A DNA stretch of 64,000 bases from a virus, in the IMG/VR virus record IMGVR_UViG_3300033233_000027, positions 1 to 64,000 of that record. One strand, given 5' to 3'. Numbering within the stretch: position 1 is the stretch's first letter; each line of letters opens with the position of its first letter. Shown here piece by piece: positions 22,236 to 57,160 of the stretch. The position numbers and the translations under genes are program-made. The notes beneath the pieces were generated by a model, which ran no database searches, was not told where the DNA came from, and saw nothing but the letters and a program-made list of their open reading frames with translations.

Positions 22236-24338
22236 ATGAGACGGCGAAAGTACGAGCGGTTCTCTGAAGACGACAAGGCAGCGATGCTATCGCTGTCGAA
22301 AGAAGGTCTGCGGTCAAAGGAGATCCAGACTCATCTTCCACATCTGCCAACCCAGCGAATCAGCGGATTCCTTCGAATGCACAAGGCCCCAGGAGCGAAT
22401 CCAAATCCTCGATCGACCGTTCTAGTACGAACGACGGCTGAGGCCGCACCGCAAGTCAGGGCCGCTGCTGCCGCAGCCGCTTCTGGTAATGTGCAGGCTT
22501 CATCCAACCCACTTCCGTTTGCTGCTCAACCTACAACCGCAGCGCACCATCAATCGCAGCCATCTGCGGAATATGACTTCCGGCCGACGCAGACCCCGAT
22601 GGTGACGAGCGGAGGAATTCCGGTATCATCTGGTCAGGGTCAGAGACTGGAAGTCGAACGAATCATTCCGCAAGATGGGCTTCTTGGCGTTCACCCGATG
22701 TCGTTCTTGAAAGATGATATCGGTCGTGTTTATGGTTCTGGAACATACAGAATCACGACGCGCTCAAATAGTGGACAAATAATGACCGCAGAAGTTCCTA
22801 TTGCGGCCACCTATGGTCCTCCGCTTTCACCGAAGCGTTATTCTGGGCGAGAAGGACAGCCTGATCGGTCACAACCGAAGCTATGGAACGATCCACAAGA
22901 TCAGCAGTATCGCTTTGAACGCGCAGAGGCGCTTCGCGCTTCTCATAGTCCAGCTGAAGATCTCAAGAACACCGTCCAAGCTACGAAGGAACTCATGACG
23001 CTTGCGAAGGAAAACGGCCAGGACAGTTCTGGCGGTTACGCTAGAGCCATGGAGACGCTGGCTGCCGCCGCATCGCAGCCGAAGTCTCAGGAATCTGGGG
23101 TGCTTGAGAAATGGTTCATTGCGGACGCAGAACGCCGTTCGATAGAGCGCAAAGAATCTGAGGAACGTCGGGAACGCGAACGTCGTGAGGACATGGAGCG
23201 CCGAGATCGTGATCGGAAGGACGACCAGACGCGTTTCGATCAGATAATGGAACTTGATCGCCAGCGGGCTGTGAGTTCCAACAAAGAAAAAGATGACGCA
23301 CACAAGCGAGAAATGGAAAGGCTGAAGGAAGAGAACTCCGCTCGAGTTGCTTGGGAAGCAGAACAGAGAAAAACGCTCCTAGAACTCGAGGCGAAGAAGA
23401 TCGAACTCGTGACCAAGGCGCAAGAGGCTAGGGAGAAGGAACTTGATCGCCGTATTGAAGAAGTAAAAGCTGAGGCAGAGTCTGGCAGGGATTCGATCCA
23501 GGGAGAGCTAGAAAAAGAGCGCGATCACCAGACGGCAATGTTCGATCTTCGGTCAAAGCAACTCGACATACAGGAAAAGTTCCAGAATGAAAAGCTGGAT
23601 ATGCAGCGCCAGCAGATCACTTCCTCTAGTGCGGATAGCGTCCTCTGGGGGACGGTAAAGGATCTGGTAGACAAGGGCTCTAAGGCATTTGAGAGATACA
23701 CGGAGACTGAACAGCTCAAGATGGTTGTCGAAGAGGCTAAAAAGAACGGCGTTAGTCCTGGAACTGTAGCAGACCTCGGGCGGGCAGCCATGGCTGGGAA
23801 TATGCAGCCTGAGGCAAAACACACTTCCACGGGCCAAGCCTCCAATACAAACGGAAATGGGAATGGAAAGGGGGCGGAAGTGGGCCTACTCGACCGATTC
23901 TTCAAGGATCCGATCTTTGCTGAAGTCGTGGAGGAGTGGGGCCTTGCGGTCTCTGTCAAGGCAAAGCCGAGTACATTCGCCAACACTTTCCTAGTCTGGA
24001 TGAACGATCCAGAAAACACGACATACAAGAAGGCGACATCGACCTTTGCTCTGTTCCTTGAGAACAGAGACTGGCCATCGATGTTTGAAGCCATGCAGAG
24101 AAATCTTTCTGCCAAGATCACGGAGCCATTCAAGTCTCCGTATGCGGCTGAATTCTATGAGGCATTCCGCGTCATCGTCGTGGAGAGTACGCGTTATCTC
24201 TACGCGGAGTTCATGCAACAGCGGGCTGACCAAGAGGCTCGTGTTGCGCAAGAAGCGGCAGCGAACAACGGATCTTCTGAACCTGTAGCGGAAGAGTCGT
24301 CTCAGCCCCTGAAGGAAACGGAGCGCATCAGGGCATGA
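22236..24338 (+). CDS. 700-aa protein: N-terminal HTH, low-complexity linker, long E/R/K coiled coil, C-terminal helical domain
   Basis: Start reassigned to MRRRKYERF (SD GAGGG); FSEDDKAAML...GLRSKEIQ..L......ISGFLR; ATGA-coupled to next gene. Confidence 0.85.
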   Translation: MRRRKYERFSEDDKAAMLSLSKEGLRSKEIQTHLPHLPTQRISGFLRMHKAPGANPNPRSTVLVRTTAEAAPQVRAAAAAAASGNVQASSNPLPFAAQPTTAAHHQSQPSAEYDFRPTQTPMVTSGGIPVSSGQGQRLEVERIIPQDGLLGVHPMSFLKDDIGRVYGSGTYRITTRSNSGQIMTAEVPIAATYGPPLSPKRYSGREGQPDRSQPKLWNDPQDQQYRFERAEALRASHSPAEDLKNTVQATKELMTLAKENGQDSSGGYARAMETLAAAASQPKSQESGVLEKWFIADAERRSIERKESEERRERERREDMERRDRDRKDDQTRFDQIMELDRQRAVSSNKEKDDAHKREMERLKEENSARVAWEAEQRKTLLELEAKKIELVTKAQEAREKELDRRIEEVKAEAESGRDSIQGELEKERDHQTAMFDLRSKQLDIQEKFQNEKLDMQRQQITSSSADSVLWGTVKDLVDKGSKAFERYTETEQLKMVVEEAKKNGVSPGTVADLGRAAMAGNMQPEAKHTSTGQASNTNGNGNGKGAEVGLLDRFFKDPIFAEVVEEWGLAVSVKAKPSTFANTFLVWMNDPENTTYKKATSTFALFLENRDWPSMFEAMQRNLSAKITEPFKSPYAAEFYEAFRVIVVESTRYLYAEFMQQRADQEARVAQEAAANNGSSEPVAEESSQPLKETERIRA

Positions 24339-25036
24339 CCGAACACAAAAGGCTGCGGAGGCTTGGCATCGCGATTGATGCCGCCCCACCAGCCTATGGT
24401 GAAGTATTACGGACTCCTCTGGAGGACGACTTCGGGGGCATCCGGTTTGAAGTCGGTCGTGCTGTCCAATACGTAAAGGAAGGTGGCGCAGATCCGCTTG
24501 TGGTTGACACGGCGAGATATTGCGCGATGCTCGCGAGAGATACGGCAGAACAGCTTGGTTTTCCCGTAACTCCTGAGAACGCAAAGTTGATTGACCTGGA
24601 GGGGGTATTCCTTTGGGTCCAGGCCAACTTCGTTTACGTTGATGATCCAACTGGAGTGGAAGTGATGCAGACAGCACCTCGTATGCTCCGTCAGAAGATG
24701 ACGCCGCATGAAGTGCTGGAATGGATGTGGGCTCCGATTCGAGATGGAATGGCTCTTGCCCGCGGTATTGATCCATCGGAATTAAGCTGTCCTGAAGGAA
24801 AAGTGATCGGAGATTGCGAAGAGGCTGCCTGTCTTCTGTTGGCCATGGCTGCCGCTCTTGATATCGGTCCTCTGAAGTTCCGCTTCGGCGGGAATGATGG
24901 CCAACTCCACCATGTTTGGGCTTCTGCTATGGCTGGTGGAGAGTGGCGCGACATGGATGCTACTCAGCGCCAGTTAGGGTTCGATCAGTTTCTGCCATTC
25001 GACCACTTCGATGAACTGGAGGTCGAACTTCCGTGA
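24335..25036 (+). CDS. Transglutaminase-like (papain-fold) Cys-His-Asp enzyme, putative virion maturation protease
   Basis: YVDDP.GVE, GDCEE (Cys), HHVW (His), WRDMDAT (Asp). Confidence 0.88.
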   Translation: MTEHKRLRRLGIAIDAAPPAYGEVLRTPLEDDFGGIRFEVGRAVQYVKEGGADPLVVDTARYCAMLARDTAEQLGFPVTPENAKLIDLEGVFLWVQANFVYVDDPTGVEVMQTAPRMLRQKMTPHEVLEWMWAPIRDGMALARGIDPSELSCPEGKVIGDCEEAACLLLAMAAALDIGPLKFRFGGNDGQLHHVWASAMAGGEWRDMDATQRQLGFDQFLPFDHFDELEVELP

Positions 25037-28748: not shown

Positions 28749-29240
28749 ATGAGTAAGAACATTCTCGTGGTTGAAGACGACGCGAAGCAGGCGCGGGAAA
28801 TGACTACCCTTCTCAGAAAATGCGGGTACAAGGCTTCCTATGTCTTGTCGTCTGAAGAGGCGATCTGTGTCTGCGGAGCAGAGAAATTCGACTGCCTCGT
28901 AGTGGATTACTGCATGCCGCAGATTGATGGCGTGAAGTTTGTTCGTACCCTACGCCAGTCTGGGGCGCATACTCCAGTAGTCATACTTACAGCCTCAGAT
29001 AAGGTAAAGGTGGAGGCGGCAGTTGACGACCTTGAGGTGTGGAACGTACTGGAAAAGCCTACGGGCATGAAAGAGCTCGGAGAGAGCATCGAAGAGGCGT
29101 GCGAGTGGTTTGAGATGCCTCCAGAGGTCGTAAACGAGCTTGAGAAGCAACTAGAAGAAGAAACGAAGCACATAGGCGAAATGCGTCGTGATCTGGACGA
29201 TGAAACGAAAATCCTTCCTCCTTTTGGGAGAGTTCTATGA
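28749..29240 (+). CDS. CheY-like response regulator receiver protein
   Basis: ILVVEDD, VVDYCMPQIDG (phospho-Asp), ILTA, LEKP. Confidence 0.92.
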   Translation: MSKNILVVEDDAKQAREMTTLLRKCGYKASYVLSSEEAICVCGAEKFDCLVVDYCMPQIDGVKFVRTLRQSGAHTPVVILTASDKVKVEAAVDDLEVWNVLEKPTGMKELGESIEEACEWFEMPPEVVNELEKQLEEETKHIGEMRRDLDDETKILPPFGRVL

Positions 29241-42433: not shown

Positions 42434-42712
42434 CTAGATCACGACCCCAGCCACGATTTCAGGAAAGACCACAAGATGATCTCCATCGGCCACCCCAGCC
42501 TGCGGCAAAGTCTGCGTTTCAAGCAGACGTCGCCCCTTTTCCTTGTGGTCTAGGCTGTAGACCATCGGGGAGCCATCTGGAGAAACGGCTGGGAGCAACA
42601 TCTTCGTGATGATGTTCGGGAGGATCTTGGACACGGGGACGGAATCCGAGATCCTCGCTTTGACGCTCTTAGCACCCGTCTGATCCAGAAAAATAACCAT
42701 TCGGTCTGCCAT
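42434..42712 (-). CDS. Ubiquitin-like beta-grasp protein (EsaB/YukD-type)
   Basis: MADRMVIFLDQTG...VPVSKILPNIITKM.LP..SPDG..M.Y.L.HK..GRRL...QTL..AGV.DGD.L.V.PEIVAG-VVI; SD AAGGAGG. Confidence 0.85.
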   Translation of the reverse strand: MADRMVIFLDQTGAKSVKARISDSVPVSKILPNIITKMLLPAVSPDGSPMVYSLDHKEKGRRLLETQTLPQAGVADGDHLVVFPEIVAGVVI

Positions 42713-42760
42713 GGCATCCTCCTTCTGTTGCACAGAATGCGTACTGTGCGTACAACCGAA

Positions 42761-43216
42761 CTAAACCCTTCCTAATTGCTGCAAGAAATCGAACGCCTCT
42801 TTTGTAAAACATTCCCAGAACAGCTTGGCTGCGGCTGGAACCTCATTCGGATCGTGAACTTCGACACGGGCCGTAGGAAGGTGAATCGCCACCTTGGCTA
42901 CGTCCCATGTTTTACCTCCGACGCAGAACCACCCATCTATAGTTACTCGAGCCAGTTCAACTCCGCGGAGTGCGTAAATTAGTTTTGCGCCATCTCCCCG
43001 ATATCTGAACCAGCCTTCGGGAATCATGTCCCCGTACTGGATTTCCGTAACCGACATCTGCCCGTCCCTTCTAATCAGCGTGCGGTATTTATCTATCGCC
43101 TCAGCAGTGGCGGCAGCAGCCCCGATCTTCTCTTCACGGTGCCCGCCATCGCCATGGATAACGGCTAGTACGCATCCTAGGAGTTCCCGGTACTCGTTCA
43201 TCGATTCACGTCTCAT
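42761..43216 (-). CDS. Hypothetical protein
   Basis: Co-oriented ORF; LAVIHGDGGH motif seen in phage hypotheticals. Confidence 0.6.
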   Translation of the reverse strand: MRRESMNEYRELLGCVLAVIHGDGGHREEKIGAAAATAEAIDKYRTLIRRDGQMSVTEIQYGDMIPEGWFRYRGDGAKLIYALRGVELARVTIDGWFCVGGKTWDVAKVAIHLPTARVEVHDPNEVPAAAKLFWECFTKEAFDFLQQLGRV

Positions 43217-43493
43217 ATTTCATAGCCACGCTTGGCTTGTTCAATCCGCTCCCTTGGCACCAAGGACACTTTCCATCAACGGCTCGGAATACGGTTTCAT
43301 CCTTCGTACTCTCCCAGGAGAAATTGCAGTCTGGTCCGTGGCAGTGACGTATCAGCTTAACCGAATCCCCTTCCAGAACTGATCCGAAGTTCGGGGATCC
43401 GCAGGTCGGACACTTGAACGCGTGATGCTTGCCAGTTCCAAAGCAGGCAGGACATTCTTTCGGAACTTTCGGTTTGCTCTTTGCGTCTGTCAC
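43206..43493 (-). CDS. DnaJ-type zinc-finger-like protein
   Basis: CPACFGTG, CPTCG, CPWCQGSG. Confidence 0.65.
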   Translation of the reverse strand: MTDAKSKPKVPKECPACFGTGKHHAFKCPTCGSPNFGSVLEGDSVKLIRHCHGPDCNFSWESTKDETVFRAVDGKCPWCQGSGLNKPSVAMKYET

Positions 43494-44265: not shown

Positions 44266-44337
44266 CTGCCCCGTCACGATTCGAACGTGAACCTTCCGCA
44301 TCCAAAGTGCGGCGAGCTACCGTTACTCCACGGGGCA
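44266..44337 (-). tRNA. tRNA-Gln(UUG)
   Basis: TGCCCCG/CGGGGCA acceptor, CCGCA-CT TTG GA-TGCGG anticodon arm, GTTCGAAT T-loop; no encoded CCA. Confidence 0.9.
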
Positions 44338-44698: not shown

Positions 44699-45361
44699 TC
44701 ACGCCATCAGCGGTAGTTCGTACTCGTCATAATTCTCGAAGGGATGATGTTCCCCGAATTTTGGATGGAGAATGTCGCAATCCACGAACCGTCGTTGGCA
44801 GCCAATCGAAGCCCAGACGTAGTGCAGGCTTCCTCCAGTTCCTCCAAGCCTCATCTTGAGCGGGCTTAGGCCAATGGCCGCAGCAAGCGTCAGTACGAGA
44901 ATTGTCGCATCGTCTGAGTCGCCGGACATCTTCGGACTCGGACACTGGAGCGGTCCAAGATCATTCAATTTGCTTTGAGCAAATGCCGCTTGGATCGGAT
45001 TCCAGAAGATATCCAGCACTTCCTTTGGCGTACGAAGTCGGCGCAGATTGTTTGCAGCAGTACGAATACATTCCGAGCCGATAGGATCCTGTACGTACAC
45101 AAATCTGTCATGGCACCACGCGTACAGTCCCTGAAGCTGAACGAGATCGCGATTGTCTTCTGAGAGTACCACACCATTTTTACTAGCTGCCTCTGCTGAG
45201 AATGTGGCAATGAGATGCGCTGTATCTATTACCAGCGGATCGGTGTGGCCTTCACAGATGAAGTCTGCCATCCGACCAAGAGTGAATTGGACCGCATCAA
45301 ACTCTGGCAATCTCCTAATTCTTGATTCACCTAGCCCTGGGATGTTGTCCTTACTCTTCAT
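44699..45361 (-). CDS. Catalytically altered paralogue of the transglutaminase-like enzyme
   Basis: Collinear with 24335..25036 (DPLV.DTA, FVYV.DP.G.E, PLK.R.GG..G.LH.VWAS) but GDSDD and LHYVW; start MKSKD with SD AGGAG. Confidence 0.88.
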   Translation of the reverse strand: MKSKDNIPGLGESRIRRLPEFDAVQFTLGRMADFICEGHTDPLVIDTAHLIATFSAEAASKNGVVLSEDNRDLVQLQGLYAWCHDRFVYVQDPIGSECIRTAANNLRRLRTPKEVLDIFWNPIQAAFAQSKLNDLGPLQCPSPKMSGDSDDATILVLTLAAAIGLSPLKMRLGGTGGSLHYVWASIGCQRRFVDCDILHPKFGEHHPFENYDEYELPLMA

Positions 45362-45648
45362 GCCTTGGCTCCTTCTAGGATTCCAGAATCCTATCGTTCT
45401 ACGACCCCTGCTCCACAACACGTTGGGCAAGTCTTCTGCTTCGTACCACGAATCTCTCTGGCGAATACCACCGGGCTTCCCCAGTCAGCTTTTGTGAGGA
45501 TGGCAACGGCCTCTTGAAATGTCTTTGCGGCAAGAACGGCTCGCATATCCTTAAAGCAGGAAGGCCAGTCATCGCATGGACTCGGTTCAATGTTCAGATA
45601 CATCCGCTGTAGCTGTTTATCGGTATAGGTCTTCATGATTCCTCAATA

Positions 45649-57070: not shown

Positions 57071-57089
57071 CTATCCTCCATTCACGTAG

Positions 57090-57160
57090 TAGGCCGTAGA
57101 GGAGTCGAACCTCTATCAAGCCCTTATAAAGAGCCCGCTCTACCGTTGAGCTAACAGCCT
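57090..57160 (-). tRNA. tRNA-Ile(UAU)
   Basis: AGGCTGT/ACGGCCT acceptor, GCTC/GAGC D-stem, loop TT TAT AA, GGTTCGACTCC T-arm; no encoded CCA. Confidence 0.85.

Follow-up and report, generated by a model that had tools for sequence, protein, structure and literature searches.

Eukaryotic viruses are well known to capture the ubiquitin of their hosts, and the ubiquitin genes of baculoviruses and of large eukaryotic DNA viruses are the textbook cases. Ubiquitin and SUMO genes of nucleo-cytoplasmic large DNA viruses are also mentioned in PMC3417536. In prokaryotes, 'eukaryote-like' ubiquitin systems with E2, RING and JAB components have been predicted by comparative genomics (PMC3417536; PMC10557695), a prediction that these two sources cite to Burroughs, Iyer and Aravind (2011). 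The Bub system (BubA; formerly 6E/DUF6527) has an E1 and an E2 without catalytic cysteines, uses oxyester chemistry and includes a DUF6527 serine protease (PMC11601596). Our literature search found no experimental study of the planctomycete pathway described below, and no report of such a ubiquitin-like protein (Ubl) gene in a virus of bacteria or other prokaryotes.

Here we describe a solitary Ubl gene in a virus from sediment. Modelling of the product, read together with its conservation, suggests that the viral Ubl most likely enters the conjugation cascade of the host.

The viral gene and its surroundings

The stretch of DNA analysed, hereafter the window, comprises bases 1–64,000 of a 77,684-bp IMG/VR record that originates from a sediment metagenome, carries 120-bp direct terminal repeats and is rated 100% complete. 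The same virus was found in a second sediment study at approximately 2x depth, where no contig extends over the Ubl gene. Gene orientation and GC skew divide the genome into three blocks, which occupy the minus strand to ~14.8 kb, the plus strand from 14.8 to 42.4 kb and the minus strand for the remainder. The third, accessory block runs from ~77,028 down to 42,434 and closes with the Ubl gene (Table 1). The converging plus and minus blocks are separated by a hairpin that has no T-run after it and is likely to act as a two-way transcription stop.

Table 1. Features of the Ubl gene and its flanks, in window coordinates
Feature	Position	Strand	Basis
Ubl gene (P0001), 92 aa, stop included	42434..42712	-	ORF, translation, Pfam YukD, beta-grasp model
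Ribosome-binding site AAGGAGGA, four bases 5' of the ATG	42717..42724	-	Read from sequence
PEIVAG codons, residues 84-89; Gly89 is the presumed conjugating glycine	42446..42463	-	Conservation, co-fold
VVI tail codons, residues 90-92; presumed pro-peptide needing removal before activation	42437..42445	-	Model disorder; tails in cellular genes
GC-rich perfect hairpin, 27 bases, GCCGCAGCTGG-AATTG-CCAGCTGCGGC	42387..42413		Fold -29 kcal/mol, z = -3.2 vs shuffles

The Ubl open reading frame runs on the minus strand from an ATG at 42712 to a TAG at 42436–42434 and encodes 92 residues with the C-terminus PEIVAG-VVI. A GTG start at 42733, which would give 99 residues, was rejected because it lacks a ribosome-binding site and the N-termini of homologues favour the ATG. 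The product belongs to the Pfam YukD family (PF08817), which it matches over residues 12–81 (52.1 bits, the gathering cut-off being 27; E 1.2e-13). An AlphaFold2 model built from 23 sequences (pLDDT 88.7) has the beta-beta-alpha-beta-beta order of a beta-grasp, with disorder confined to the last three residues (pLDDT < 50). Searches of the PDB by sequence gave non-significant matches alone (E 0.23), and there was no match in PHROGs or PADLOC. The nearest solved folds returned by Foldseek were those of Caldiarchaeum ubiquitin (PDB codes: 6fj7 and 6fno; E ~3e-6, TM 0.70), and further matches were to SUMO, ubiquitin, BilA (8tyx) and the Ubl domains of EccD (6umm and 7np7). An initial annotation of the same DNA had described a 92-residue beta-grasp protein with a strong Shine-Dalgarno sequence and the end PEIVAG-VVI, and the open reading frame, the site AAGGAGGA, the PF08817 match and the model all agree with that description.

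The statement that no E1, E2 or JAB gene is recognisable in the window holds equally for the whole 77,684-bp record. Queries with the host RING, E2, E1, JAB and M48 proteins against the entire viral genome (tblastn) recovered none of these, whereas the Ubl itself was found. Pfam scans of the 135 viral open reading frames detected no ThiF, UQ_con, Prok-E2, JAB or Prok-RING domain. A six-frame scan of the virus with ThiF, Prok-JAB and UQ_con was also negative, with controls that responded for ThiF and Prok-JAB and hardly for UQ_con. Cognate E1 or E2 genes elsewhere in the viral genome, which would have spoken against a lone captured tag, were not found by these scans, and the viral Ubl would depend on host enzymes.

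Several other viral genes were considered for a part in such a pathway. A candidate deubiquitinase, picked up by a coronavirus papain-like peptidase profile at 18.7 bits (below the cut-off), is a response-regulator receiver protein (28749–29240). The 95-residue zinc protein two genes upstream of the Ubl (43206–43493) was rejected as a mini-RING; its CxxCxGxG repeats match only zinc fingers of the DnaJ and FdhE types, and for this reason we make no claim for it as an E3. Directly upstream of the Ubl is a 151-residue orphan with one partial homologue and no match in Atlas or Pfam. The virus does encode an enzyme that may answer to the papain-fold enzymes of the initial annotation, a 233-residue transglutaminase-fold protein with a Cys-His-Asp set (24335–25036). 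Its model (pLDDT 84) matches 3isr, PNGase, LapG and TG2, which are transglutaminase-fold cysteine proteases and relatives, with E values from 5.5e-4 and low TM scores of 0.3–0.4, and Cys161, His192 and Asp208 are conserved in its family. A paralogue (44699–45430; 37% identical) has Ser in place of the Cys and Tyr in place of the His. The suggestion that such an enzyme clips the Ubl tail gained no support from these observations.

Cellular relatives and the planctomycete operon

The viral Ubl has 393 relatives among 5.8 billion proteins, the best of which are 70–81% identical. The named ones among the best are annotated as 'EsaB/YukD family protein' and come from Planctomycetota, for example Lignipirellula and Paludisphaera. 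In species-representative genomes there were 301 loci with a relative, and the 80 listed are nearly all from Planctomycetota. The Ubl had been put forward as a clue to the host, and the phylum to which it points is this one.

The genomic setting of the cellular genes is that of a conjugation pathway. In Singulisphaera acidiphila DSM 18658, a Prok-RING_1 gene lies upstream of the Ubl, with genes for a UQ_con E2, a ThiF E1, a JAB protein and an M48 peptidase downstream. Across the 80 listed genome loci, tblastn placed an E2 beside the Ubl in 77, an E1 in 72, a JAB in 71, a RING in 51 and an M48 peptidase in 42, and most of the metagenome loci long enough to judge have the same enzyme neighbours. 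The cellular relatives thus reside in E1-E2-peptidase operons, as the initial annotation had it, whereas none of these genes was found anywhere in the virus. Three gene orders were seen: Isosphaeraceae have RING-Ubl-E2-E1-JAB-M48, with M48 as a conserved neighbour; Pirellulaceae have Ubl-E2-E1-JAB...RING; and one clade of unclassified Planctomycetota has the compact arrangement E1-Ubl-E2-JAB. The host E1 has 383–436 residues and a single ThiF domain. The host E2 contains the motif YHPNI...GAVCLG and the host JAB carries the JAMM motif HTHPGYGVFLSNYD; on sequence, both enzymes look active. The operon fits among the 'eukaryote-like' ubiquitin systems predicted for prokaryotes.

Despite the Pfam family, the viral Ubl is not a YukD of the type VII secretion class. 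The relatives adjoin RING, E2, E1 and JAB genes and not EssB, EccC or WXG100; the WXG100 match of S. acidiphila, at 7.89 Mb, is far from its Ubl gene at 2.17 Mb, and the two are likewise megabases apart in other such genomes. Pfam scans of the virus found no type VII secretion genes. A ThiS/MoaD sulfur carrier, which would pair with an E1-like protein but no E2 and lie among thiamine or molybdopterin genes, was rejected as well: the Ubl is accompanied in its operon by a UQ_con E2, a JAB and a RING, and no cofactor-biosynthesis genes are among the neighbours. Nearest relatives in either class would have told against the initial annotation, and the RING, E2, E1 and JAB neighbours place them in neither.

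The same observations bear on the idea that the viral protein is a non-conjugating beta-grasp adaptor or assembly factor, comparable to YukD/EsaB, the EccD Ubl domain or the Ubl-type tail assembly proteins of siphophages. The family assignment and the EccD domains among the structural matches (6umm and 7np7) would suit such a role; conjugation is not known for B. subtilis YukD, and the viral gene adjoins the large plus-strand block where the latter ends. However, it is encoded on the strand opposite that block, as the final gene of the accessory one, and its relatives are operonic with E1, E2 and JAB and distant from WXG100 matches. The C-terminal motif is moreover the best conserved part of the family, with Gly89 and Ala88 invariant, which makes little sense without C-terminal chemistry. 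We regard an adaptor role as very unlikely.

The host system also differs from the Bil and Bub systems that had been proposed as its type. In PADLOC neither the viral nor the host Ubl matched BilA, and the E2 and JAB did not match BilB or BilC. The host E1 reached only 25.5 bits against BilD over one ThiF domain and the E2 matched only a generic E2 model (E 0.0026), and the similarity of the E1 and JAB is of a generic kind. Bub was rejected, since the host E2 carries HPN...Cys and no DUF6527 protein is present among the scanned operon proteins. The presence of a RING protein is a further departure from a target of Bil or Bub type.

The distribution of the operon points in the same direction. 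In the family to which S. acidiphila (Singulisphaera) belongs, 106 of 121 species genomes contain the Ubl, against only 29 of the 301 sampled from the phylum at large. The Ubl tree agrees with taxonomy, the regions on either side of the E1-first operon keep their synteny from genome to genome, and the cellular Ubls are 70–100% identical across families, with an 85-residue core that is free of indels in all 273 sequences. Because of this wide presence in the family, conserved synteny, agreement with taxonomy and high identity, the host system looks lineage-core rather than a defence island, although an immune role is possible. The defence role that the initial annotation assigned to the host pathway gained no support, and sits poorly with the frequency in the family and the conserved synteny.

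Capture, conservation and the C-terminal tail

In a maximum-likelihood tree, the viral Ubl is placed inside the clade that holds all 13 E1-first operons (support 98/88), and its nested position among Planctomycetota bears out the proposal that it is a captured cellular protein. Its sister is the metagenomic protein P0002, encoded on a 509-bp contig (support 99/93). The end branch of the viral protein (0.26) is among the longest, the median being 0.031. At 54.8% GC and 65.6% GC3, the gene is close to the viral genes (53.4 +/- 3.0% and 55.8 +/- 6.9%, respectively), whereas the mean GC3 of cellular Ubl genes is 86%. The best nucleotide identity is 72%, and of the 85 codons compared with the closest cellular gene, 32 carry synonymous changes and 20 non-synonymous ones. 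The viral protein nevertheless retains each of the 26 residues on which 229 distinct cellular sequences all agree, as well as 50 of the 54 columns that are at least 95% conserved, with no indel. The exceptions are S51V, G59K, I81V and Y83F, at positions that are 97–98% conserved in cells, and S51V, I81V and Y83F are also present in P0002. The combination of virus-like composition and diverged codons with a full set of invariant residues indicates an old capture kept under purifying selection rather than a recent passenger.

A second virus appears to share the gene. P0007 is an 89-residue Ubl with the same short N-terminus and KARISDSV stretch, ending exactly at AG, and the viral transglutaminase-like protein has a 70% identical counterpart in P0128. 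Logan lists each of the two with three contigs, the longest of 86,330 bp, and a second, related virus of ~86 kb therefore probably carries a Ubl, the two proteins being linked by identical contig statistics only. In the AU test, the grouping of the present Ubl with P0002 and P0007 in one clade was not rejected (p 0.665), and the constrained tree was better than that of the quick free search. This is consistent with a single capture for the three proteins, with long branches involved. G427, a less closely related virus that also has terminal repeats (33% identity in the marker protein), gave no Ubl match, from which we take the gene to be accessory and dispensable for such viruses. No other viral copies were found in INPHARED phages (tblastn), nor in IMG/VR beyond the present record.

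Viruses do pick up host genes, and the lack of a Ubl in G427 would be in keeping with a chance acquisition that has no function in the virus. That account has to contend with a composition near that of the virus itself, synonymous sites near saturation, an intact frame in which all 26 invariant residues survive, and a strong ribosome-binding site. It is also opposed by the probable retention of the gene in a second virus, where identity in the marker protein is no more than 70%, and a functionless passenger seems to us extremely improbable.

The conserved C-terminus of the family reads PE[IV][VT]AG, and Pro84, Glu85, Ala88 and Gly89 are invariant in the 229 distinct cellular sequences. A conserved glycine that is exposed, or could be by trimming, is accordingly present in all of them, and any tail after it varies in length and sequence. 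Among cellular genes read directly from genome loci, 21 of 76 end at AG and the other 55 have tails of 1–108 residues; tails of two residues (29 genes) or three residues (9 genes) predominate, and none of the tail sequence is conserved. Examples are AG-RS in Singulisphaera acidiphila and AG-AAL in Lignipirellula cremea. In two metagenome loci the Ubl is fused in frame to a conserved C-terminal domain. The best 120 of the 393 database relatives include 50 that end exactly at AG, while most of the others have short tails. The statement that close cellular homologues end at PEIxAG was therefore right as to the conserved motif and as to these 50 proteins, but most of the remainder extend beyond it.

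As tails are the norm in this family, routine trimming after the glycine is implied. The precursors of eukaryotic ubiquitin, Caldiarchaeum ubiquitin and Bub are trimmed likewise (PMC11601596, PMC10557695). The idea of VVI as a viral device, a cap that would bar conjugation unless clipped, does not hold up against the 55 tailed cellular genes, or against the probable orthologue of the related virus, which ends at AG. The viral VVI is no special block.

Proposed use of the tag and comparison with known systems

To examine the encounter with a host E1, residues 1–89 of the viral Ubl were co-folded with the E1 of a locus from the E1-first clade (L014), using alignments for both chains. In this locus the E1 spans 99–1250, the E2 1634–2308 and the JAB 2313–2882. 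The complex scored 0.72 in three runs against 0.00 for the best of three controls, the host being placed by the Ubl clade only; of 80 solved complexes, 58 attain that mark, as do 2 of 110 mismatched pairs. Contact agreement among the runs was at least 93% and the pLDDT of the partner at least 88. In the co-fold, Ubl residues 85–89 contact E1 residues 39–41 (the GxGxxG nucleotide loop) and 127–131 (CLDNR), which together form the adenylation pocket. The pass shows compatibility by likeness and not binding, because E1-Ubl complexes have been solved and the true partner is closely akin to the viral Ubl; the model may draw on memory of those complexes, and any near relative of the partner would also pass. 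Failure to pair with the host E1 would have weighed against the initial annotation, and in this controlled model the pairing passes. Three of the four substituted residues (51, 81 and 83) belong to the modelled E1 interface, and their changes may just as well weaken the contact as maintain it.

The reading that we favour, and hold to be somewhat better supported than the rest taken together, is that a working tag is trimmed, charged and conjugated by host enzymes, and that a surplus of this altered tag redirects or blunts the host pathway. The Ubl would have been captured long ago from a planctomycete lineage with a chromosomal E1-Ubl-E2-JAB operon, and the virus would supply the tag alone, as a short precursor (PEIVAG-VVI) like that of most cellular members. 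The tail would be cut after Gly89, most probably by the host JAB/JAMM peptidase. Gly89 could then be adenylated by the host ThiF-type E1, and the tag handed to the host UBC-like E2 (HPN..Cys) and conjugated. Excess tag carrying S51V, G59K, I81V and Y83F would redirect or blunt host conjugation during infection, to the presumed benefit of the virus, much as baculovirus viral ubiquitin acts in insect cells. The infected cell is presumed to carry the E1, E2 and JAB, with the clade of the Ubl as the guide to the host. A tag that must satisfy several partners is favoured because the whole molecule is conserved, including K15, K37 and K57 and the full C-terminal motif.

The viral protein might instead be a dead-end decoy, which would tie up the host E1, E2 or JAB, or cap chains, without productive conjugation and so switch off a harmful pathway. 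In favour of this, the virus has a tag without enzymes, and the four changes fall at positions that are 97–98% conserved, three of them in the modelled E1 interface. Baculovirus viral ubiquitin, moreover, is described as a poor supporter of degradative chains. Such a decoy would make most sense if the host pathway were antiviral, by analogy with the tagging of tail fibres by Bil, and bacterial Ubl conjugation can indeed be antiviral (Hor et al., bioRxiv 10.1101/2023.09.04.556158; Chambers et al., PMC10557695). However, a blocker of E1 or JAB needs one interface, whereas conservation here spans the whole molecule, the three lysines and PEIVAG included, and the substitutions are conservative except for G59K. 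The host pathway is also unlike a defence island, with 106 of 121 family genomes, conserved synteny and no Bil match. We consider a decoy unlikely, although it is the main rival.

A broader possibility is that planctomycete viruses carry a ubiquitin of their own, a lineage of large and atypical viruses from sediment having long kept a host-derived Ubl to take over or poison the core E1-E2-RING-JAB pathway of its host. We put this forward tentatively, as a possibility about which doubt prevails. If true, it would be the first virus-encoded conjugatable Ubl tag outside eukaryotic viruses, the eukaryotic tactic of ubiquitin capture would extend to a virus of bacteria, and conflict over tagging would take in, besides the Bil, Bub and CBASS systems on the host side, a virus that brings the tag itself. 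It would also provide a natural probe for the function of the bacterial pathway. The finding highlights a strikingly conserved (RING)-Ubl-E2-E1-JAB pathway that has so far been predicted by bioinformatics, and the occurrence of the viral Ubl suggests that this pathway matters in infection. The four known substitutions of the viral Ubl, together with its natural pro-peptide, make it a ready tool for the study of that pathway.

The closest known counterparts of the viral protein are the Ubls of the planctomycete operons, with which it shares 70–81% identity, an indel-free core of 85 residues, a PE[IV]VAG end and short C-terminal tails; it differs in being encoded alone, on the longest branch, with four substitutions at near-fixed positions. 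Caldiarchaeum subterraneum ubiquitin (6fno and 6fj7) is the top structural match (E 2.7e-6, TM 0.70), has a precursor that is trimmed by a JAMM peptidase and is likewise encoded alongside an E1, an E2 and a small RING. It is, however, archaeal and cellular, with non-significant sequence similarity (E 0.23) and only ~26% identity to the viral Ubl in a structure-based alignment. BilA is likewise a beta-grasp protein with an Ala-Gly or Gly C-terminus and an operon that includes E1, E2 and a JAB peptidase, and its structure (8tyx) is among the matches; the present system differs from Bil in its RING protein, its single-ThiF E1 and its lineage-core rather than island-like distribution. YukD/EsaB proteins share PF08817 and the beta-grasp fold, and are set apart by the E1/E2/JAB context and the invariant terminal glycine motif found here. 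The baculovirus v-ubi and the ubiquitin and SUMO of nucleo-cytoplasmic large DNA viruses would offer the same logic by analogy, that of a diverged copy of a host tag which makes use of host enzymes, whereas here the host is bacterial and the tag belongs to the YukD family.

Gene content of the terminal-repeat virus

The 135 ORFs of the whole virus record were scanned against Pfam, and the 66 of them that lie in the first 42 kb were scanned against PHROGs as well. Over these sets, neither scan revealed any capsid, portal, terminase or tail protein in the terminal-repeat virus. Matches were returned for DnaB and a DnaD-like helicase loader, and the remaining hits include glycosyltransferases, collagen repeats, a C5 DNA methylase and HNH nucleases, together with an AbiEii-like protein and a fatty-acid hydroxylase. 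Two tRNA genes are located in the accessory block, the third, minus-strand gene block of the virus. A weak match to a coronavirus papain-like peptidase profile is spurious, the protein concerned being a response-regulator receiver domain. Feature coordinates are summarized in the table.

Coordinates of features in the virus and of Ubl fusions in metagenome loci
Feature	Location	Strand	Remarks
Transglutaminase-fold Cys-His-Asp protein	window 24335-25036	+	model pLDDT 84; Foldseek matches 3isr, PNGase, LapG, TG2
Response-regulator receiver domain protein	window 28749-29240	+	78 bits; within large plus-strand block
tRNA-Gln(TTG)	window 44266-44337	-	accessory block
Paralogue of transglutaminase-fold protein	window 44699-45430	-	37% identity
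tRNA-Ile(TAT)	window 57089-57160	-	accessory block
Ubl fused to C-terminal domain	L092:9557-10693		metagenome contig; in-frame fusion point after PEIVAG
Ubl fused to C-terminal domain	L113:6388-7035		metagenome contig; in-frame fusion point after PEIVAG

The transglutaminase-fold protein and its relatives

In the paralogue of the transglutaminase-fold protein, the catalytic cysteine is replaced by serine and one histidine by tyrosine. The database relatives of the transglutaminase-fold protein number 16, all without names, and one of these is encoded on a contig of 86,330 bp that probably also carries a gene for a ubiquitin-like protein (Ubl). Among other IMG/VR records, a homologue of the transglutaminase-fold protein (33% identity) was found solely in L164 (IMGVR_UViG_3300017605_000956; 78,478 bp, with terminal repeats), which on account of that homologue is a distant relative of the present virus. 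No match to the viral Ubl was found in L164.

Ubl-like genes and fusions outside the virus

A second Ubl-like gene, only ~40% identical and at a separate locus, occurs in ~25 of the 121 species genomes from the family of Singulisphaera (G308-G395). Domain combinations are seen in ESM Atlas clusters, one with YukD and UQ_con in a single chain (a Ubl-E2 fusion of ~350 aa, with Chloroflexota as its commonest source) and another, from Bacillota, with YukD and a zinc ribbon.

In two metagenome loci, L092 and L113, the Ubl is fused to a conserved C-terminal domain that has no Pfam match and ends in ...ELVTDAAGLSM..KR..AR.IGLKANID. The enzymes E1, E2 and JAB were looked for in the rest of both loci (~6.5-10 kb per side) and none was detected. 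The fusion locus is cellular, and is syntenic with L084 and L085, in which the Ubl is unfused. The fusion looks like a ubiquitin-fusion precursor.
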